A DNA stretch of 64,000 bases, taken from NCBI GenBank assembly GCA_965213685.1, contig CBDBZY010000007.1, forward strand, positions 160,001 through 224,000, written 5' to 3'. The stretch is from a bacterium (GTDB taxonomy: Bacteria; UBA8248). The first letter of the stretch is position 1. Each line of letters begins with the position of its first letter. Below the pieces are notes generated by a model. It ran no database searches, had not been told where the DNA came from, and worked only from the letters and a program-made list of their open reading frames with translations. The translations under genes were made by a program, and so were the position numbers. This document shows, piece by piece, positions 1 through 42,135 of this stretch.

Positions 1-3000
1 GGAGGGCCAGGGAGAACACACGCTGAAGGTAAGTGTTCAGGTTGCATTAAGGGCAGTAGGTCTACCATGAGTGTGATGCGTGAATAAATCAAGAACCATA
101 ACTCCCTAGGTCATGAACTGCCCTCAAGCCTAGATATTAACTAAAACAGTCACCCAAGATATGGTGATACTGTTTTTCACCTTCTGCAAGTGAACATGTG
201 AAATGGAAAGAAAAGTATGAGAAGATGCCATAAGACGTATTTCAGCAAATACCAGGCCTCATCAGCTATGCTGGGGTGACTGGGAGCATACCATAGGCTC
301 TAGTTTCACTGCATGTGTTGTTCAGTGTCTGGTTGAGATTGCTTCATCTTTGGCAGGTTCATGAGGCAGACGCTCCTTTGGATCTGCTGCAGGGAAAGAA
401 GGTCAGTCAATGTGCCCATGGGAGGAGGGTGGTAGGGGTAGGGAGAGGGTGCAGTGGACAGAGTGAGTGCTGAGGGGCTGTGTTGAGTTGTGTGTGCCAG
501 AGGTGTGGTTTGTTTTGCAGAAATCGGAGGTTGACTTCACGTCTGTGTGCTATGGCCAGCACTCCCGGCTCTTCGTTGGCTCCTCAACAGGTATATGTGT
601 ATGTGTGGAGGAGGGAAGGGAGGAGGAGGAGGAGGAGGAGGAGGAGGAGGAGGAGGAGGAGGAGGAGGAGGAGGAGGAGGGAGAGGAGGAGGAGGAAGGA
701 GGGAGATAGTGGGTTACATTATGCAACAGCCCACTGTTAGTCCTGTGTCATTGATAATATAGGGTATGTATAGGATTGTACTTGCCTACTAATGTATTAT
801 ATTGTGGATGGCTCTCTATGTACACTATCCATGCTTCCTATCCCCCAGGAGTGCTCTCCATGTGGGATACCTCTAAGAACAAGTGCATCATGTTCTGGAG
901 GACAGGTCCAGATGAGATCGGTGGGTAATGCATTGCACACTATTATAGTAATATACTGAGAAAGCACATATATGCTAATGTAAGTACATGTACATCAGGG
1001 GCATCTGATGTGTCGTACGTGTTTCCTCTTCAGTCAAGGAGTGTTCACTGTGGTCCTTCCCTCCTCTCCCCTGCAGGTGCCCTCCACTACAGCAGTGGGA
1101 GACTAGTGGTGGGGGCTGTCTCCGGCCAGCTGCAGCTGTGGGGCGTGGCCACCGAGGGCTGCCCTCCTCCTGTCAGCCAGGAGGCAGTGCTGGAGCTGGA
1201 CGGCTCCATCTTCTCCCTGGCCTTTGACCAGCAGATGAAGCTGGTACGTATATTGCTATAACTAAGCTTAGCTATCATGCGAAGGGGGCGGGGTGTTATT
1301 TTTTTTTCAGAAGGGATTTTCCTGTGCAAATAAATGTACATGTAGTTGGCTGAAACTTGGTCCATGGCAGAATGGGTAATTCACCACCTAGTGCTTGTTG
1401 AGGATTACCTCAATGCTATAGTTACTGCATCTCCAGGCAGCGGTAGTGTGCCAGTGAAGCACGCAGGCTTTCATAATGGTGAGTACGCTCCTTCCTTTCC
1501 CATTGGGAGAAGTCTGTGACCTGCATTCCACGTGTTATAGTTTAAAGGTCTCGAGTGTTAACCTTTGAACTGTAACACAAGGAAGCGATGGCCGAGTTGG
1601 GGAGACTTCGTCGTTTTCAGCTCTCCGGCGTGACGGAGACTGGCGTGGAGATCGGGCGAGGCTCGTACGCGGTGGTGGTGGAGCTGCGCTTTCGGGGGCT
1701 CAAGTGCGCGGGGAAGAAGCTGCACAGACAGCTGTACCACGAGTCGTCCAGGGCGGAGCGGGACAGCGTTCTGCGGCGGTTCGAGGAGGAGTGCGAGCTG
1801 CTGAGCTCACTCCGGCATCCCAACGTGGTCCAGTTCCTCGGCGTGTACGCGAGCGGCGCCGCCTCGGAGCCCCTGCCCGTGCTGGTGATGGAGTTCCTGC
1901 AGAGCACGCTGAGCGGCTGCCTGGAGCGGCGCGGGCGGCTCCCGGACGAGGTCAGCTACGGCGTGCTGGCGGACGTGGCCACGGGTCTGTGCTACCTCCA
2001 CGGCAGCTCTCCCGCCATAATCCACAGAGACCTGAGCGCCAACAACGTCCTCCTGAGCGGAGACATGCGCGCTAAAATCTCGGACCTTGGAGTGTCCCGA
2101 ATCTTGGGCCTAACTCCAGCCCAGATGACCCAAATGACGACCTGCCCCGGGACACCGTCCTACATGCCACCCGAGGCTCTCGGACATAAACCGAAGTATG
2201 ACACATCTATAGACTGCTTCTCCTGTGGGATGATGATGCTGCATGTGCTGACCGGGCAGTGGCCCATCCCGTGTGAGCCCAACCGTGTTGACCCAGACAA
2301 CCCAGACAAGCTCATTGCTCTTTCTGAGGCGCAGCGGAGGCAGGAATATCTAGAGAAGCTTGCAGAGGGTCACCCGCTGAAAGAGCTCATTGTCAAGTGC
2401 CTCAGCAACAGTCCCAGCCGGCGTCCTGATGCTGAGATGATTTTGAAACACGTTCAGCCACTAGCTGAGAAGTTAGCTGCCACTACCCCTAGCAAGTTTG
2501 CCCTGCTCAAAGAAGAGCAGACTGTGGTGAAGGAGAAGGAAGGTTTCTCAAAGGAGCTAAGACAGAAGTCAGCGGAAGTGGAGGGAGATGTAGTACTGCG
2601 TGAGATTGCTACTGAGAGTGCTCAACTTCAGATAAAGGAGCTCAGCACAGAATGTTCTGGCCTAAGGGCCCAGCTGAAGGCAAAGCAAGAGGAGATTGTG
2701 GTGAAGGAGCGTGAGTTCAGTGCCCAAGCGAAGGCTCAGCAGCAGAACATTAATGCCAAGGAACAGGTCTTTGGGTCGACACTGTCTCAGAGAGAAGCAG
2801 AACTGGTGGCCAGTCGTCAGGAAATGAGGTCATTGGAATCCATAAAGGAGCAGGAAGTGTCCTCTTTGAAAGAGGAGGTGGCTGCCTTGCATGCAAATCT
2901 AGATGCCAAAGAAGCAGTCATTGGTGGCTTGAAGGAGCAGATACAGAAGTATCTGTCCCACTCAAAGCAGGTATGTTCCATACAGCAGTGTATTCTGGAA

Positions 3001-5711
3001 ACAGTTGATTAGTTATTCACTTGTTTTATTGCAGGTACCAGTTCGACTTGACTTTGAGCAATGCAAGCAGCATGCTCCCTCTCCTCTCTATGCCTCTCCT
3101 GTCGTTATGTTTGAAGACCACGTCTTCATCAGCCACCCCTACATTGACGGCAGTGGAAAGCATGCCATTCTGTCGTACTCCATTGCAGATGATTCTTGGG
3201 ACACTCTACCCTGCCTCCCTGTGGATTTGGCATCTTTTGGCCTCGGCTGCTGTGGTGGTAGAGTGGTCACGGCTGGGGGCGTGGCTAACCTCTCGGTGGT
3301 CAGCGATGTGTATGTGTTCCACAAGGAGAGTCAGAGATGGAAGAAGTCGATTCCTCCTCTCCCAATGAAGCTCTGCCACTCAACTCTCATTGGACATGGA
3401 TCAGCACTGGCCGTGGTTGGAGGGCTGGACCCCTCAATGTATGCAGTGTCCAGCGTGTACGTGTACCTTGGTGGCAAGCAAGAGTGGTATTCGGTGGCAC
3501 CTCTTCCAATCGCCCTCAGTGGCCTTAGCCCAGTTGTGGTAGGAGACACGTGCTACTTGACTGGAGGGTTCTCCAAGGTATATGATCCCAGCAAGACGCT
3601 CCTTTCTGCCTCCCTGTCAAGACTGTTTGCCCCGAGGCAGAAGTCTGGCTACATGTGGAAGACCCTCCCAGATGTCCCCTACCTCCGCTCCTCCCCAGCC
3701 CTTCTTGGAGGGGCTCTGATTGTCGTCGGTGGCTACACGAAGCAAGGAGACTCTCTGTCAATTGTTGGTCTTGTTCATGTCTACTCCCCACAGTTGCAGA
3801 AGTGGATTGAGATTGGTAACCTTCCGGCCCCCAGACAACGTCCAATTTGCGTTACATTACCCACTGGTGAAGTGCTGGTTATTGGAGGGAAGGGGTCAGA
3901 ATCATCCACTGCAGACACAATGTGGAAGATCTCCTTAGCATTTTGAGCCCATCTTTTTATTTTTTGTAACCAAATATCTTTGTAGTTATGGAATCTACAT
4001 AATGCTATTAGTGTGTGAGTGTGATACCTGTGGATTTGTGTGCATTAAGATTTTTGAACAGCCATCAATAATTTGTCTTATGATAATTTTAATTTTTGTT
4101 ACTCAATGTGGAGCGCCACCACATGTAGCTTTTACACTCTTCCTATACCCATGCACCCATGCTATAGGGCGTGGCTGGTACGACTGGCGGTACTGTGTGG
4201 TACATTAACTGGCCAGAGAGGAGCAAGGTGAGGCTGGTCAGTGGCCACTCGGCTGAGGTGACTGGGGCAGCCTATAGTCCAGATGGCCTCCACCTGGCCA
4301 CTGGCTGTCAGGATGGTTCTCTCACTGTGTGGTCTGCGACCACTTTAGAACAGTACGTAGTCTTCCAAGCTCCAAAGAAGGTTTGCCTTTGGTTCTCTCT
4401 ACTTCCTCATACATAGTTCACCTCTTGTCTCTTTCCCTTACAGGCATGTACATGTGTTTCATTTGCTCCTGCAAAGGCAGCTAATAATGAGGAGGGACAT
4501 CCCCCTGAGGCTCAGTCCTCCCTCCTAGCAGCTGGCTACAGTGATGGTAGTCTCAGAGTGTTTAATGTTGCCAGGACTCAGGTCGAGAGGAAGATGCAGC
4601 CCCATGCTTCCCCCGTGACAAAGGTGGCTTTCTCCATGGATGGTATGGCCTGTGTGTGTATGTGCAAGTGTGCAGCTGTGGAGGGTCATCCCTTCTCTTA
4701 CACTCTTCTTCCTCTTCTCTTCTCACTGTGCCCCTATATCCTCCCATTTCCCGTGTTCCCACTCTTCCCTCCCTCCCTCCCAGGGTCTGCCCTCTTCTCT
4801 GGCTGTGCTGAGGGGGTGGTGGTTGTCAGCAGTGTCAGCTGTGGGCTGGTTATGAAGGTCATCGCTGACCACCAGGGGGCACCAATTACTGACCTCTGTG
4901 TGGCCTGCAAACCCTTGCAGGTATTCCAACAGGAGGGATTGACATTCTTTTCTCTCTTTGAGTCTCCTATCTTTCTCTTCCCCAGTTGTCTTCACTGCAT
5001 GTGGAGAGGGTGTGGCTGTGGTTGGTTGCCAGTGGTGACAGGAGAGTGAGTCTGTGGAGCACTGACTGGGCACAGGATGTATGTCATTTGGTGGACTGGC
5101 TCACCTTTCCAGGGCCTTCTGTTGCTCCCGATGGCACCAGACTGAGGAAAGGACACAAAGTCAGCCAGCAAGATCTCTGTATTCACATCCTCTTATATAC
5201 CCCCCTCCTCCCTCTCTCTGTCTCTTCCCCCTTCAGTGCCAGTATGACCTGCTGCCTCCAAGCCTAGCTCATTTCAGCCCATCTGATCCAGACATAGTAG
5301 TCTACACTGGCTATGGGCTAGAGAAGTGTGTCCAGTTCTACAGCATCTCACAGAAGACAGTGTTGAGAACCTCTGCCCTCACTCACTGGGCCAGCTCTAT
5401 GGACATCTCCCCTCAGGGTCACCTGATAGCCTTTGGCTGTGCAGGTACAGTTATCTAGCTAGTGCAAATATACTTGTCCTTGTTCTGAGTTAACAACACT
5501 TTGATGAATACTTGTGCCTTTTTGCTCACTTTGTCTTATGTTTCTCTTTCCTCCAGAGCGAATACTGACGCTGATGGACTATGAGGAGGGTTCATTTCAA
5601 GACTTCCCTGGACACCAAGACTCTGTTAGCACTGTACTGTTTTCACCCTCTGGGAAATCCCTGCTCTCTGTCAGTGACTGCATTGTTCATGTCTGGAATG
5701 TGCTACATTAA
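1..5711 (+). CDS. WDR90: WD40-repeat protein WDR90/POC16-like, 3' portion (multi-exon, begins upstream of the window)
   Basis: GT-AG exons at ~1-28, 357-401, 521-590, 849-920, 1077-1243, 4168-4380, 4444-4642, 4784-4920, 4986-5159, 5237-5444 and 5557-5711 join into WD40 repeats (GVAGTTGGTVWYINW, GHSAEVTGAAYSPDGLHLATGCQDGSLTVW, LMDYEEGSFQDFPGHQDSVSTVLFSPSG). These resemble the WDR90 C-terminus. Stop TAA at 5709-5711. Confidence 0.75.
79..283 (-). mobile_element. Short dispersed element carrying a hammerhead-ribozyme-like motif (Penelope-LTR/retrozyme-like), copy 1
   Basis: The reverse complement reads ccagtcaccccagcatagCTGATGAggcctggtatttgctGAAAtacGTCttatg...ttgggtgactg...cctagggagttatggttcttgatttattcacg. 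It is homologous to 38307-38428 on the + strand. Confidence 0.65.
228..283 (-). ncRNA. Minimal type I hammerhead ribozyme-like motif
   Basis: CUGAUGA core, stem II GGC/GCU, GAAA, very short stem III, GUC triplet, and stem I cauag/uuaug. Confidence 0.55.
1588..3946 (+). CDS. TKL-like protein kinase + coiled coil + Kelch-repeat protein (~764 aa, 2 coding exons), nested in a WDR90 intron
   Basis: Exon 1588-2970 has GRGSYAVV, CAGKKLH, HRDLSANNVLL, DLG and GTPSYMPPE, then a long coiled coil. A phase-0 GT-AG intron at 2971-3034 joins in frame to exon 3035-3946, which has Kelch GG...Y...W repeats. Confidence 0.9.
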
Positions 5712-18944: not shown

Positions 18945-21155
18945 ATGGCCACGCCCACAACTCCCACTGAGCAAGCCCTCAAGAAGCTGGAGGACCAGCT
19001 CACCTGTGCCATCTGCCTGGACTCCTACACCGACCCCAAACTCCTCAACTGCTTCCACGTGTTCTGCACCAAATGCCTGCAGCCCCTGGTGCATCAGGGA
19101 GCACAAGGGCAGACCATCCAATGCCCCAACTGCCGCCAGCCCACCACACTGCCCCAGAACGGAGTCCAAGGCCTTCAGGGGGCCTTTCACATCCACCATT
19201 TGTTTGACATACAGTCTGCTCTCAAGAAGGTCACTGCGTCTCAGGATTTCCTGTGTGACAAATGCAAACAAGACAAGGCCACCCACTTTTGCCGCAACTG
19301 TGGCCAGTTCATCTGCCAAGTGTGTGTCATGGTCCACCAGACGTGGGAGGAGCTCTCCTCGCACGAGGTGATCACTATCCAGCAGCTGACCAGCGACGCT
19401 GCAAAGCTGGTCCCTTCCAAGAAGCAAGCCACGCCCTGTCCCAAGCACCCAGACAGGCAGCTGGACCTGTACTGTGAGACATGTGAGGAGCTGATCTGCC
19501 GCGACTGCATCGTCAAAGTCCACCGGGACCACCAGTATGACCTGGTGGGGGACGCCTTTTCAAAGCACAAAGATGTGATCGTTGCCTCCCTCCAGCCTGT
19601 GGAGCAGCAGCTGGCCACTGTCAGCAAAGCCCTTGAAGGTCTGGACACTCGATGTGGCCAAATCACAGAGCAGCAAAAGGCTATTGAGGCAGACATTGAG
19701 ACAAGCATCAGACAGCTCCACGAGGCTCTGGAGGCGAGAAAGCAAGACCTGATCGGGCAGCTTGAGCAGCTGACCCGACAGAAGCTGAAGAGCCTGGCAG
19801 CCCAGCGAGACCAGTTTGAGCTGGTGGGAACCCAGCTGAGGAGCTGCCGAGACTTTGTGCAGGAGAGCCTCCGAACTGGGAGCAAGGCAGAGATCCTGGC
19901 AATGAAGAAGCCAGTGGTGAAACAGATCAGAGAAATGACTTCCTCCTTCAAGCCTGAAGTCCTAGCACTCCAGGAGCAAGCCAACATGAAGTTCTCCCAC
20001 AATCAGCCTCAACTGGTTCAAGCATGTCAGGAGTTTGGAAGAGTCTATGCCCAACAAGTGTGCCCTGAGAAGTGTCGTGTCAGCAGTCCGGGGGTTGGGT
20101 TTATAATGGTTGGAGAAACAGCCACCACAACTCTCCTAGCCATGGACCAGGAGGGGCAGGAGTACCAGAGAGCTCTTGAAGATGTGAAATCAGAACTGGT
20201 TTCCAGTGATGGCTCCGTCAGAGTCGCAGCTGAAGTGAAGGGAAGAGGAGGGAACAAGTACGAGATCAGCTACCGACCACAACGCAGGGGACAGCACCAC
20301 CTGCACATTCGAGTGGAGGGCAGACACATCTCAGGAAGTCCATTCTCTGTCGTGGTTCACCCAAAGGAATTCACAGCGATCAGAACTATTGAATGTGTCA
20401 AGAGCCCATGGCGTCTGACATTTAATGGCAGGGGAGAGATGGTTGTTGCTGAGTATGGTGGACACTGTATCTCAATATTCAGTGCCAATGGAAAGAAGAT
20501 CAAGTCATTTGGCAGCCAAGGATCAGGTCCAGGACAGCTCCAGTGTCCCATTGGTGTGACAGTTGATGGCCAGGGGAACATACTTGTGTGTGATATGGGC
20601 AACAATCGTATTCAGAAATTCTCCCCTGACGGCACCTTCCTGAAGTCAGTTGGTACATTTGGCTCTGGACCACTGCAGTTTGATGGCCCACGTAGTATTG
20701 CCATACACCCTCACACTAAGAAATTGCATGTGATTGAAGGGCAAAATAATCGTATTCAGGTTCTGAATGAGGATATGACATTTTCCAGCACCTTCGGTAG
20801 TCGTGGTTCAAACAATAGACAGTTTATAACTCCATGTGACATTACTTTTGACTCTGATGGATATTTGTATGTAGCAGACTATATCAATCATCGAATTCAA
20901 GTCTTTAAAGAGGGCAATCAATATGTGAAAGAGTTTAGGAATGAGCTGATGAAACAACCCATCGGTGTCACTGTGTATGGAGGGGTGGTGTATGTTGCTG
21001 ATTATAGGAGCAGACACCTGTTGCTGTTCAGCACAGAAGGAAAGTTTTTGAGATCGTTCAAACCATTTGATGCTGGGCCCCACGGGGTAGCTGTGGATGA
21101 CAGTGGACTGATTTATGTGTGCTATGGCGGCAAGAGTTGTATAGAAGTATTTTAG
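18945..21155 (+). CDS. TRIM-NHL E3 ligase (RING, 2 B-boxes, coiled coil, filamin, NHL repeats; TRIM2/3/71-like), intronless CDS
   Basis: Single 736-aa ORF with RING CAICLD...CFHVFCTKC...CPNCR, B-boxes (CDKC...C..C; CPKHPDRQLDLYCETCEELICRDC), a filamin repeat (YEISYRP...HISGSPFSV) and NHL repeats (FGSQGSGPGQLQCPIGVTVD). Confidence 0.93.
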   Translation: MATPTTPTEQALKKLEDQLTCAICLDSYTDPKLLNCFHVFCTKCLQPLVHQGAQGQTIQCPNCRQPTTLPQNGVQGLQGAFHIHHLFDIQSALKKVTASQDFLCDKCKQDKATHFCRNCGQFICQVCVMVHQTWEELSSHEVITIQQLTSDAAKLVPSKKQATPCPKHPDRQLDLYCETCEELICRDCIVKVHRDHQYDLVGDAFSKHKDVIVASLQPVEQQLATVSKALEGLDTRCGQITEQQKAIEADIETSIRQLHEALEARKQDLIGQLEQLTRQKLKSLAAQRDQFELVGTQLRSCRDFVQESLRTGSKAEILAMKKPVVKQIREMTSSFKPEVLALQEQANMKFSHNQPQLVQACQEFGRVYAQQVCPEKCRVSSPGVGFIMVGETATTTLLAMDQEGQEYQRALEDVKSELVSSDGSVRVAAEVKGRGGNKYEISYRPQRRGQHHLHIRVEGRHISGSPFSVVVHPKEFTAIRTIECVKSPWRLTFNGRGEMVVAEYGGHCISIFSANGKKIKSFGSQGSGPGQLQCPIGVTVDGQGNILVCDMGNNRIQKFSPDGTFLKSVGTFGSGPLQFDGPRSIAIHPHTKKLHVIEGQNNRIQVLNEDMTFSSTFGSRGSNNRQFITPCDITFDSDGYLYVADYINHRIQVFKEGNQYVKEFRNELMKQPIGVTVYGGVVYVADYRSRHLLLFSTEGKFLRSFKPFDAGPHGVAVDDSGLIYVCYGGKSCIEVF

Positions 21156-35501: not shown

Positions 35502-38500
35502 CTAGTCATCATCGTCATCCTCGTCCATAAGATGCAATAGGGTCATCTCTCCCTTCCCCCCCTCCCCACTCCCCTCTTCACCCATGGAGCTCTCGGCCAG
35601 CTGCTGGGAGAGGATCATCTGCTCCAGGTCGGGGTTGTGCTGCTGGTGAAGGGAGGAGGTGAAGGTGAGCTCCTCACACTCACACTTCCCCCCTCCCACC
35701 TTCACCAGCACACAACTGTGGGTGAGGTCAAAGCTAGGGACAGATACGACCAGTACTGACTGGCCCTCAGCGCCTAGAAGGGGTGGAGGGAGGGAGGGAG
35801 AAAGAGGCAGAAGGAGAGGGAGAGAGACGAAGAGAGAAGGAGGGAGAGTGTTAATTAGCTCCAGCTCAAAATTCAAGTACCTTACACTCACCCTGGACTC
35901 TGCAGTGGTGGAAGGCTGGCTGGTTGCCACAGAAATAGACGTGTGGACACTCATCCAGAATGTGTGGGTCTTCACTAGTGAATGGGTAGCAACCTGCCAG
36001 AGAGGTGGACGGTATAACCTCAGCAGTATAGCCCAACACAGCCGTATCACAGCCGTATCATCATGGATATTGACACATACAAACAGCACACGATAAAGCA
36101 GCATTACTATGGATATTCACACATACAAACATCCACATTAACGTGCAGAAGCACATAACAATATATCTCCTAAATCAATAGACAAAATCTATTCCATCAG
36201 TTACTTTCAGAGGAGTACAATTGTGCTATATAATTATTGCCTCTCATTAAGATCAGAGCAGTCTACTGTGTGCAGTGTGTAGCTCTGATGCCCTAGCCAC
36301 TCGGTCATTCTGGGCCCATGCTGCATGACTGTGCTCTGTGCTGCAGTCTCACTGAGGGTGTCCGGTGCTGTGGGGGTCATGTGTCTCCAGTGGAGGGTGC
36401 TCTCCAGTATTCGGAGTCTGTCGTTCATCGTGGAGAATCTATAAATATTGTCCACATTTTGACCCGAGGTCCCCACGAACCTGCAGCATTGAAATATAGT
36501 AAGGATGTTATATACTACTTCTTGCATGCTACTGGGGGTAGTCTTATGTGCTAAGTGCATGCTGGCAAGACTCAAATATTAAACTGTGGAATGTCAACTG
36601 AATGTAGCTAATTATTGTTCTATAAACACTTTACTGTCTACAGAATTAAAAAAGCCCCCCCCCCCCCCCCCCCAATTTCCCAGCAAAACACTACACACAG
36701 CCCCTCCCTCCTCTGCTTCATCCTCTGCCTCTCCTGCCCACACGTCTCCCCAGCTCCCTCACTCACAGCAGTCCACCGATGGAGGCCTGGTAGGGATTGG
36801 TCACCAGGGTCAGAGCTCCCGTTCTCCGAGCCTCCGGGAACATGCATGGATGCATTGGCTGCTGGGGTAGCTGGTAGTTGGCCGGGTCATGTGCTCCTGG
36901 CATGACGTCCACATGCACACACAACTGAAAGAGAATACTGCCAATGTAATTATGCAGATACTACACACATTGTGCAAAATCGAAACCATATACTGAGAAA
37001 TAGAAATGTACTGAGTTATTTAACTGAGTGACACAGTGAGTGCTATACTGAGTGATACATGTATATTGACTATATATGTGATATGTGCATTATGGGTTTT
37101 TTGGTAAGCAGATATTGTGAATGCTGATTAGAGGGCTTTGTGTGGACAGAGCTCAGCTCTACACTCACTGCTAGCTGTGCCAGCACATCGTCCAGCTCCT
37201 TCACTGCCTCGATGGTGTCAGCCGAGTAGTTTCGTGAGAGGAACTTGGTCTGCAGGGGGCCAGAGTCACGTGTGTCAATACTGCAAGTCATGGCAGCACC
37301 CATGCAGCACACAGCACTGGGAGGTGGGACACGGCAGTGTGTGGCTGTGATCCTGTCCCAGTACCTTCTCATCTTTGGGTTTGGAGGCCTTTGCTGGCTT
37401 GTCAGTGATGGAGTTCCCTGCAATGATAACTTGCACTATGTTGGAGCAGAGCCTCTGGTCCTGTGGGGGGAGGTGGTGCATGCTATTGCTGGAGGTCACG
37501 TGGTGTGCATAGCCTCGTACCCAGGCTCTTTGGGGGCGGAGGAACCAAAGAGCCTGGGTATGAGGCTAGTGGTGTGCAGTGCCCACTCACAGCTGGCCCA
37601 CCCAGCTGGCCTGTGACGTAGTCCACCAGCAGCTCTACGCTGAGCTGGTCACACCACGAGGACCCGAGATTCAGCCCTGACACCAGCAACACGTACCTGC
37701 ACACAGGAATGAGGACAACTATAGAGGCCTATGTGGCTAGATACATGATGAAAAGGCTTAGGAATACTTTTAGAGAACCGTGAAAAACCAGCAGCCACCC
37801 GGGATTGAACCGAGGGCCTCTGACTTAAGCTGTAACATCTGAGCTATGGCGATGTACATACTCCTTACTAGAAATACTACTTATCTCTAGGGAGTTTTTG
37901 TTCCACCATTTCGACATCTATGCAAGCATCATCACCAGGGAATTAAGCTTATTCTCATAGGTGCTAAAGATGCCTAGAATATAGATGCAGTTAGAAAACA
38001 AGGACTTAAATTGGTATGCACAACCTATAAGCCAACAGGCAAGCATATTGTAATGAGCTGGTGTGCTGACTTCTCTTCCTCCTCTGTGTCCATGGTGTCG
38101 GGGTCAGTCTGCTCAGGAAGCTCAGCAAATGTGTAGTCCTCAACCTCGAATGTTCCGTTCTTCAGCTCCTTCCCCAAGAGAGCCACGATGATACCTGCAG
38201 AGGCACAGAGCACACACTGACCTCCCACACCTGGTGTACACACAGTAACGGTATGGGGTCACCTGTACATGATGTGACGTGTGTATGATGTGTGATACCC
38301 ACACTGCCGGTCACCCCAGCACAGCTGATGAGGCCTGGTATTGCCGAAACGCATCCAGCACATTGGGTGACTGTTTGGCCTGAGGACCGTTCGTGGCCTA
38401 GGGAGTTGTGGTTCTCGATTTATTCACGATGAATGGTCATAATAATAGGGTGTGGGAGGCTGGGACAATGCTACATGCTGGTTAGAATTTAAACACATCT

Positions 38501-39388
38501 GTCTTGCTATTACATAACTGCAAAGGTCATATTTTCTCCTTGTGACCATGGGAACAACCCTGGGAGTAATGGGCTAGCTATTGTGATCTCATGCTTGGTG
38601 ACATTGGTACTGTGAAGCTTGATGTCTTGCCTCACCAGTCACAAGTTCTTGTGAGGGTATGGCTCCGCAGAGGGTGATTCTCTGACTGGAGTCCTCCACT
38701 ACTAGCTCATCGCTACTGCTCACACACTTCACTCTGGGAGGCTGGGGAAGGAGGTGGTGCTGGGAGGGGGGGAGGGGGGGGGGGGGAGGCAGAGAGATGA
38801 GGAGGGAGGGTGGTCAGGAGAGGGAAGAGGAGAGGGAGGGTTGCCTTACTGTGCTGCTGATCTCCTTGAGGATGGAGGGCTTGAGCTCCATCTTCTTGAA
38901 AAGTGTTCCAATAATGTAGCACCTTTGCCCCTCCTCCAACTCCATCAGCTTCTTCTTCACAATGACATCACTTCCTGCAAGTGAACGCAGGAAGACACAC
39001 TAAGACACACTAAAATACCACGCTTGTTTTTTTGCAGAAAATTATAGGCCACAACGTTGCAAATCTCTTAGCTTATTAGCGAATTTAATTACCTCCTGAG
39101 CTAATTAAATTACCTCACAAGTTATCAGGCTAAAGATTGCATCTCTCGACTGCCTCCCCTTCCAGACTGTTTCTTACCCCATTTCTTGGTTGCAGCTGCC
39201 TCCAAGTGACGTCTCATCTGCTCCAGTCGCCAGAAGTAAATGTGAGCGTACTGCGTGGCGTAGTGCCGCTCCTTCACCTGAAACTTGGAGCAACGGTTCT
39301 CGTAGCTGCAGCTGCTCCTGGTGTGCGTCTTTTCGAACTCTTCGTCCTTTGCTGTTGGAAGGGAGAGGTACTCTTCCACTTCAACCAT
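35502..39388 (-). CDS. POLD2: DNA polymerase delta subunit 2, multi-exon
   Basis: [106 protein letters not shown]. Confidence 0.95.
37510..37568. mobile_element. 59-bp palindromic insertion (mini-MITE) with a 10-bp target-site duplication, in a POLD2 intron
   Basis: 24-bp arms tagcctcgtacccaggctctttgg / ccaaagagcctgggtatgaggcta (1 mismatch). gtggtgtgca lies at 37500-37509 and 37569-37578. Confidence 0.75.
37740..37851 (-). mobile_element. tRNA-derived SINE-like fragment
   Basis: The minus strand reads gccaTAGCTCAG...gaggccctcGGTTCAATCCCgggtggc (partial A box, B box/T-arm), followed by a non-tRNA tail. The D/anticodon region is truncated. Confidence 0.6.
38307..38428 (+). mobile_element. Hammerhead-carrying dispersed element, copy 2 (POLD2 intron, antisense to host)
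   Basis: ccggtcaccccagcacagCTGATGAggcctggtattgccGAAAcgcatc...ttgggtgactg...cctagggagttgtggttctcgatttattcacg. It is homologous to the reverse complement of 79-283. Confidence 0.65.
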
Positions 39389-39456
39389 CGCGCCATTCAC
39401 CCGCCAATACAAGTAGCCACACCCCCATGTGGGCGTGGCAGTTGAAGCTCGAGGAG
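39389..39456. promoter_or_regulatory. Ultra-compact bidirectional region POLD2/MLST8
   Basis: 68 bp between divergent ATGs, containing CCAAT and an inverted pair gccacaccc...gggcgtggc (39416-39439). Confidence 0.55.

Positions 39457-42135
<2,679 letters not shown>

Follow-up and report, generated by a model that had tools for sequence, protein, structure and literature searches.

A stretch of 64,000 nt from contig CBDBZY010000007.1 (assembly GCA_965213685.1, positions 160,001 to 224,000 of the forward strand; hereafter the window) holds two short, related blocks that display the catalytic boxes of a hammerhead ribozyme, one on the minus strand at 79..290 (copy 1) and one on the plus strand at 38289..38428 (copy 2). 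The question raised by these loci is whether they are working ribozymes, accidental look-alikes or the remains of a mobile element. An earlier interpretation of the letters alone (the sequence-only reading) had taken copy 1 for a member of a small ribozyme-carrying mobile RNA family. We find that the kind of element was recognized correctly, but that both blocks are dead, 5'-truncated fragments and not whole units. In our estimate, the two loci are, with a probability of about 0.6, solitary fossils, worn by CpG decay, of a non-autonomous retroelement that bore a hammerhead and was of the Penelope-like or retrozyme kind.

One repeat family behind two loci

The relationship between the two blocks is evident from direct comparison. 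The tail of copy 1 (130..79) matches 38377..38428 of copy 2 at 86.5% over 52 nt, which bears out the common tail of about 50 nt described earlier, and the 47 nt of its 5' block (286..240) are 89% identical to 38304..38349, while a 14-nt stretch of the outer helix is 100% identical. The core boxes CUGANGA and GAAA occur in the right order and spacing in both copies, as they do in the family consensus presented below. Because both copies begin near the distal helix, both are 5'-truncated. BLASTN and tblastn searches with family members revealed no third copy of the repeat in the window.

The 47-aa stop-to-stop frame running through copy 2 was used as a seed against a protein collection, where it matched four unnamed, unrelated open reading frames (ORFs) at 60–69% identity (E values of 2e-9 to 1e-6) that resemble one another across the repeat only. 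A profile built from the copy 2 frame and these four ORFs (five sequences) matched 341 cluster representatives at E ≤ 0.001, of which 110 reached E ≤ 1e-10, in agreement with the earlier suspicion that the two loci belong to an abundant family. The matched proteins carry no Pfam domains where these are listed and their flanks outside the repeat are unrelated, and we read them as spurious ORFs that cross copies of the same repeat in other contigs. The repeat is abundant in ORF databases.

The nucleotide sequence of the family was recovered from the codons of 148 of the best 150 of the 341 representatives, two proteins made of tandem arrays, P0011 and P0142, being excluded. The 5' strand of proximal helix I is covered by an A codon (53/78, with V in 16; G2.6 C2.5 N) and a Q codon (73/81; C2.3 A2.2 G2.1), after which L (79/86) supplies C3 U4 G5, and M (89/108, with K in 8, so that M or K occurs in 97/108) supplies A6 U7 G8. 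R (98/108) corresponds to A9 G10.1 G10.2 and P (105/111) to C10.3 C10.4 and a U that is the first loop base; G (105/111) and I (106/113) fall in loop 2, and a further G (104/113) gives G11.4 G11.3 C11.2. The next codon, R in 63/117 and Q in 37, contains a CpG site and reads C11.1 G12 A13, followed by N (105/124; A14 A15.1 C15.2), by A (63/133, with V in 32 and T in 25; G C N) and by S (116/138), which encodes U16.1 C17 C1.1. The return strand of helix I is formed by C (128/140; U1.2 G1.3 Y1.4) and A (100/144, with T in 36; G1.5 C1.6 A), and the codons of the distal helix come next.

The common alternative residues in the family are the products expected of CpG decay. C-to-U change at second codon positions reaches 15–24% where a G follows in the window copies (columns 11, 42 and 50) and 0–3% where no G follows (columns 20, 35, 38 and 44). 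Columns 15 (21%) and 26 (24%) have rates resembling those of CpG sites, and we therefore infer a G at positions 2.4 and 16.2 of the master sequence. At 2.4 the G was seen directly in two of three copies read in the other open frame, the third having the A-U state of copy 1. The master so reconstructed would possess a 6-bp helix I (GCGCAG/CUGCGC) followed by a small internal loop and then a distal helix of 8–9 bp, both core boxes, a 4-bp helix II (GGCC/GGCC) with a 7-nt loop, and a helix III of two pairs within the palindrome ACGCGU, followed by C17. Thus, the type I hammerhead with a tiny stem III that had been proposed for copy 1, an architecture of animal retrozymes and Penelope-like elements (PLEs), is complete in the codon-based consensus of the family.

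Every visible core codon is kept in 37 of the 82 representatives that cover the core, and every visible hammerhead codon in 23 of 77. The codons of helix II (R, P..G, R) are retained in 41/82, and those of helix I are all at consensus in 38/77, position 2.4 being a reconstructed one. The replacement of M by K (8/108) places an A at core position 7, the sole free position of CUGANGA; seven of the eight representatives with K also share other diagnostic residues, and the K group is therefore a subfamily.

The ends of the element are as distinctive as its core. The 3' boundary is sharp: conservation stops at profile column 54/55, some 111 nt downstream of the AUG in CUGAUGA, exactly where copies 1 and 2 cease to match. 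At the other end, the first aligned column is scattered over columns 1–33 among the 102 proteins with at least eight residues before it, a spread to which frameshifts contribute in part. Eighteen representatives reach further upstream, to about 120 nt before the core, and two subfamilies share some 18–20 additional residues, so that the unit is about 240 nt or more. It has no conserved ORF, and on the reconstructed consensus its helix III is a small, two-pair palindrome.

Flanking microsatellites of the HVHV-type hexamer kind were encountered upstream of the repeat in 9 of 102 cases and downstream in 14 of 99, compared with 5 of 237 control windows, a modest excess as read in one frame. Differently 5'-truncated copies in P0002, P0004, P0008, P0014, P0031 and P0067 abut such (CATGTG-like) microsatellites, which suggests either a target preference or microsatellites seeded by the element. 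Separately, P0003 contains one repeat copy with a five-fold tandem of a 9-residue (27-nt) unit, LPVTPAQPT, over the 5' strand of distal helix I. As for the two excluded proteins, P0011 (1151 aa) resembles the profile weakly in 16 places and P0142 (480 aa) likewise in 6; both consist of a repeat, about 80 nt long, whose three frames are translated one after another, and one of these frames reads RPGIQQKHP, faintly resembling the part of the element from helix II to GAAA. This repeat could be a related satellite or a chance likeness.

Decay of the window copies

All motifs that the sequence-only reading had listed on the minus strand of copy 1 (CUGAUGA, stems I to III, GAAA and GUC) are present where it placed them. 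The family members align from about position 290 down to 81, with the common 3' end at 79, and the copy is solitary and 5'-truncated. Sequence reading and a pattern search locate the box CUGAUGA (hammerhead positions 3–9) at 259..265 and the box GAAA (positions 12–15.1) at 240..243. The remaining parts of the ribozyme were assigned from the sequence and from a structural descriptor (defined below): helix II at 244..258, with GGC (258..256) paired to GCU (246..244) in 3 bp around a 9-nt loop; a minimal two-pair helix III with the triplet GUC (236..234) at 234..239, the cut being predicted after C234; and helix I, of which the 5' strand CAUAG lies at 266..270 and the 3' strand UUAUG at 229..233, giving 5 bp of which the first is G-U. 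Stem II stands as it was described, but its closing pair is G-U and not G-C and there is a mismatch at the fourth pair, which leaves it weaker than the 4-bp GGCC/GGCC helix reconstructed for the family.

The additional long-range helix reported for this locus also exists, as 9 bp between CAGUCACCC (282..274, the strand at 274..282) and GGGUGACUG (155..147, the strand at 147..155), and the minimum-energy fold pairs both strands; comparison with copy 2 and the family reveals, however, that it is really the distal part of helix I and not an extra element. Between the two helical segments, where the 3' strand of helix I passes through the internal loop, copy 1 has acquired a segment of about 67 nt (158..224, limits approximate). 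Neither copy 2 nor any family member seen contains it, and family proteins span it only via an alignment gap, hinting that it may be a private insertion. That it marks a subfamily is weakly disfavoured, as its 40-aa ORF matched no candidate among ORFs of 22–70 aa. The 3' tail (79..146), delimited by alignment with copy 2 and the family, ends at the sharp boundary of the repeat. Relative to the reconstructed master, copy 1 has kept the core and lost the palindrome of helix III, while two pairs of helix I are altered on both sides with pairing kept (C-G to U-A and G-C to A-U). The changed state is found on the 5' strand in P0131 as well.

Copy 2 is likewise solitary and 5'-truncated, with weak similarity that may extend to 38262. 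Its core occupies 38325..38349, where the pattern search and the family codons identify CUGAUGA, a 3-bp helix II (GGC/GCC) with a G-C closing pair, and GAAA; one G is missing from the 3' strand of this helix. The remnant of helix III and the triplet AUC follow at 38350..38355, again placed with the help of the family codons, and position 16.2 is A instead of the G deduced for the master. The distal helix I is recognizable on reading the sequence as CGGUCACCC (38308..38316) and GGGUGACUG (38365..38373), whereas proximal helix I (38319..38324 with 38356..38361) has retained only three of its six pairs. The tail is about 8 nt shorter than that of the master. In passing, Rfam searches at E ≤ 10 returned nothing on 1..500 and two chance-level matches to long non-coding RNAs on 38200..38600. 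One of these is NEAT1_1, a sequence-only model that aligns to 38327..38414 (+) at 11.6 bits (E = 9.3, chance level) and includes 21 of 24 bases over GAUGAGGCCUGGU..GAAAC.

Protein domains in the window were sought in the 150 longest of its 262 stop-to-stop ORFs of at least 75 aa, after low-complexity filtering and at E ≤ 0.001. The first WDR90 exon verified by Pfam (4417..5046, plus strand; propeller exons by Pfam span 4417..5455) begins 4.1 kb downstream of copy 1, which likely lies inside a WDR90 intron, while copy 2 is located in an intron of a POLD2-like gene with Pfam-supported exons on the minus strand at 36237..36578 and 39128..39550. Since copy 1 is on the minus and copy 2 on the plus strand, each copy is antisense to its host gene. 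None of the 150 ORFs contains a domain of the RVT (reverse transcriptase) or GIY-YIG (endonuclease) type, in line with the sequence-only reading, to which no such ORF was visible.

Explanations for the loci

We propose that the family is an abundant short interspersed retroelement with a full unit of at least about 240 nt, whose RNA strand would carry a type I hammerhead about 110 nt from the 3' end. Because helix III is too small to stand alone, cleavage after C17 would need two units, which, arranged in tandem or present on separate RNAs, could form a double hammerhead. The ribozyme would process the transcripts of the element, and a Penelope-like enzyme combining reverse transcriptase (RT) and GIY-YIG activities would copy them into DNA from a fixed internal site. 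Such a fixed start, as in the Anolis Poseidon element PAc, would generate a sharp 3' end downstream of the ribozyme together with variable 5' truncation. The connection to a Penelope-like enzyme is made by analogy, and the family is probably non-autonomous. On this proposal copy 1 would be a fossil with an intact core that has undergone weakening of helix II, loss of the helix III palindrome, acquisition of a competing hairpin and insertion of about 67 nt; copy 2 would be a fossil in which helix I is half gone, helix II is short of one base and position 16.2 has been lost. We considered whether the AUG within CUGAUGA might be the start of a Penelope-like ORF and rejected the idea, given that the PAc ORF begins at stem II after G8 and that the frame of copy 2 and the family is not kept.

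Several observations weigh against the proposed fossil retroelement. No Rfam family reached its gathering score anywhere in the window, and no hammerhead model matched either copy even at E ≤ 10 on 1..500 or 38200..38600. The copies have no advantage in folding energy over shuffled sequences (z = -0.40, -1.37 and -0.02), and helices I and II of the hammerhead, calculated on the 42-nt core of copy 1, come to +0.3 kcal/mol, compared with -9.3 kcal/mol for a hairpin that buries GAAA, the predicted probability of the hammerhead pairs being about zero. Neither window copy is thus predicted by these models to fold as a hammerhead or to be active. Covariation among the copies was not significant: at the pair 2.5/1.5 of helix I (V15 with T29), the only one testable through amino acids, there were 5 double changes, 10 and 10 single changes and 52 representatives with neither (Fisher p = 0.15). 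Tail conservation equals that of the core (85–95% at non-CpG codons), and since the core is no more conserved than the tail, the similarity reflects common descent and not selection acting on each copy. The consensus itself was read via amino acids in one frame, with the third-codon bases, among them those at 2.4, 16.2, 1.1 and 1.4, deduced indirectly, and it misses any copy with a stop in that frame. Two scans of prokaryotic genome contigs, one with the core and one with the tail, gave no matches, a result to be expected from prokaryotic DNA alone. Further, the ORF scan of the window found no Penelope-like partner and no tandem dimer was seen. Finally, hammerhead mutants of PAc left insertion in vitro unchanged (PMC11167929, in the excerpted text), so that even the model family offers no proof that the ribozyme has a part in mobility.

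Some features of the repeat would also be at home at the 3' end of a larger element. Both loci could be the pseudo-long terminal repeat (pLTR) and tail of a heavily 5'-truncated autonomous PLE instead of members of a separate non-autonomous family, and we regard this as a serious minority possibility. The sharp 3' end and ragged 5' ends would follow the same pattern, the distance of about 110 nt between hammerhead and 3' end is near the 111–118 nt of PAc (PMC11167929, excerpted), and most PLE hammerheads are single motifs thought to be truncated elements (PMC4209133, in the parts available). Yet no long RT-like protein is found among the best 150 of the 341 profile matches, in which the sole proteins longer than 325 aa are the two tandem-array ORFs; independent copies, P0032 and P0073 for example, lose upstream conservation some 120 nt ahead of the core; and the window lacks RVT and GIY-YIG domains in the ORFs scanned. 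This contrary evidence is weak, however, because ORF databases show one reading frame only.

An unlikely alternative is that the hammerhead-like motif arose by chance in an ordinary repeat, such as a short interspersed element (SINE), a miniature inverted-repeat transposable element or a satellite fragment, and was never active as a ribozyme. The missing Rfam match, the lack of a thermodynamic signal, the insignificant covariation and the equal conservation of core and tail would all fit such an origin. So would the frequency of the bare core: the pattern CTGATGA-N6-30-GAAA was found twice in the window against 1.25 occurrences expected, and therefore proves nothing alone. What an accident would have to explain is that the consensus unites all type I features, namely both boxes, G10.1-C11.1, a 6-bp helix I, a 4-bp helix II, an NUH triplet and a palindromic helix III, in an architecture equal to that described for metazoan hammerheads (PMC4209133, excerpted). 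A much looser type I descriptor, which asked for the core boxes, a helix II with 3 bp or more, 0–8 nt before UH and a helix I, found any match in only 6 of 300 dinucleotide-shuffled windows with the minimum for helix I set to 4 bp, and in 2 of 300 with it set to 5 bp. In the window itself this relaxed descriptor matches copy 1 only, copy 2 failing because its stem I has been lost. Moreover, the sole subfamily-level change in the core, that of the K group, sits at the only free position.

That the copies are exapted intronic ribozymes cutting WDR90 and POLD2 pre-mRNA for regulation is highly improbable, for although both are in or beside introns and amniote-conserved intronic hammerheads are mentioned in the introduction of PMC4209133 (seen in excerpt), both are antisense to the host gene, have damaged helices and are separated from each other by indels within the ribozyme.

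Known hammerhead elements and the neighbouring sequence

In its core boxes, the reconstructed 6-bp, 4-bp and two-pair helices, the palindromic loop and the need for dimers, the family matches the description of the canonical metazoan type I hammerhead (RF00163, Hammerhead_1), whereas the window copies are decayed and score below any Rfam level. Examples of this class are the motifs of newt satellite 2, Schistosoma and the amphibian retrozymes, with which the family is compared here by description and not by sequence. The available parts of PMC4209133 give the canonical metazoan form 6 bp in helix I, 4 bp in helix II and 1–2 bp in helix III, the last with a palindromic loop of 2–4 nt, and describe it as active when dimeric.

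A second point of comparison is provided by the PLEs. In canonical PLEs hammerheads are universal and reside in the pLTRs near the 3' end; they are present in the fish elements Xena, Poseidon and Neptune, with widespread single motifs in fishes, and most single motifs of PLEs are regarded as truncated elements (PMC4209133, excerpts). For PAc, reverse transcription begins 111–118 nt into the ORF, which starts at stem II (PMC11167929, excerpts), a distance to be set beside the sharp 3' boundary of our family about 110 nt downstream of the ribozyme. The family resembles these pLTR hammerheads in the position of the ribozyme near the 3' end, in its solitary 5'-truncated copies and in the modest excess of microsatellite flanks, and its host is an animal with vertebrate genes. 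Unlike the PLE 'min-HHR' of metazoans, which has a helix II of 7–8 bp, a bulged unpaired base after A9 and a helix I of 4–5 bp (PMC4209133, excerpts), the family has a 4-bp helix II without a bulge and a 6-bp helix I. Nor is the repeat linked in the window to a pLTR pair or, among the ORFs scanned, to an RT/GIY-YIG ORF: no pLTR-ORF-pLTR or partial tandem arrangement was found in it, only the two copies 38 kb apart in opposite orientation.

A third point of comparison is the non-LTR retrozymes, which the summary-level sources describe as units of 170–400 nt that depend on dimers in vertebrates and are circularised by tRNA ligase (Cervera and de la Pena 2020). According to the accessible portion of a recent preprint (bioRxiv 10.64898/2026.07.22.740005; Li, Clavereau and Pollet 2026), vertebrate non-LTR retrozymes derive from the pLTRs of PLEs, have variable monomer fractions and occur in five of seven ray-finned fishes sampled, with units of 51–972 nt. 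Our family shares with them a small non-coding unit, a type I hammerhead that would need dimers, and monomeric copies. Retrozymes are, however, defined by tandem arrays and circular RNAs, whereas the window has two lone copies, without a head-to-tail array of the hammerhead unit at either locus.

A text search of the literature for a 14-nt stretch of the element found only an unrelated mouse paper, and the listed literature on hammerhead ribozymes together with Salmo salar does not, as far as the listing goes, describe the family, which may yet match a published fish hammerhead family. We tentatively suggest, at odds that remain well short of even, that it represents an undescribed, high-copy SINE-like family of a fish-like vertebrate genome, carrying a canonical hammerhead and spreading mainly as dispersed monomers via a Penelope-like enzyme that would start about 110 nt downstream of the ribozyme. 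If so, the sizeable share of copies that are intact elsewhere (the 23 of 77 representatives above) could yield self-cleaving or circular RNAs, and the family would link the pLTRs of PLEs to tandem retrozymes. Its dispersed monomers combine a canonical hammerhead with ends of the Penelope-like type, which bears on the origin of retrozymes from PLEs. Fishes, amphibians and reptiles are already known to harbour hammerhead retroelements widely, and two fossil copies therefore add nothing new in principle. For annotation, the intronic blocks are to be treated as repeat debris and not as host regulatory RNA. The recovery of a repeat consensus by reading spurious ORFs in protein databases may serve for other windows.

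The surroundings of the two copies contain further features. On the plus strand, overlapping long frames at 1576..3943 encode a protein kinase domain (1576..3009) and kelch repeats (2933..3943) and are flanked by WD-repeat-like sequence (929..1258) on one side and by the verified WDR90 exons, from 4417, on the other; they may constitute an intronless gene nested in, or adjoining, WDR90. An unbroken ORF of 736 aa at 18945..21152 (+) contains RING, B-box, filamin and NHL domains and looks like an intronless gene of the TRIM71/TRIM2 type. An ESM Atlas search with this ORF led no further than 'Eukaryota' with animal phyla; gene content and microsatellites tentatively suggest a teleost or salmonid. 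Microsatellites at 607..702, 38762..38840 and many other sites of the window, made up of purine-rich (GGA)n and (GGGA)n arrays and of long (CA)n tracts, give rise to dozens of spurious frames of the SLPPSL or HTHT type.

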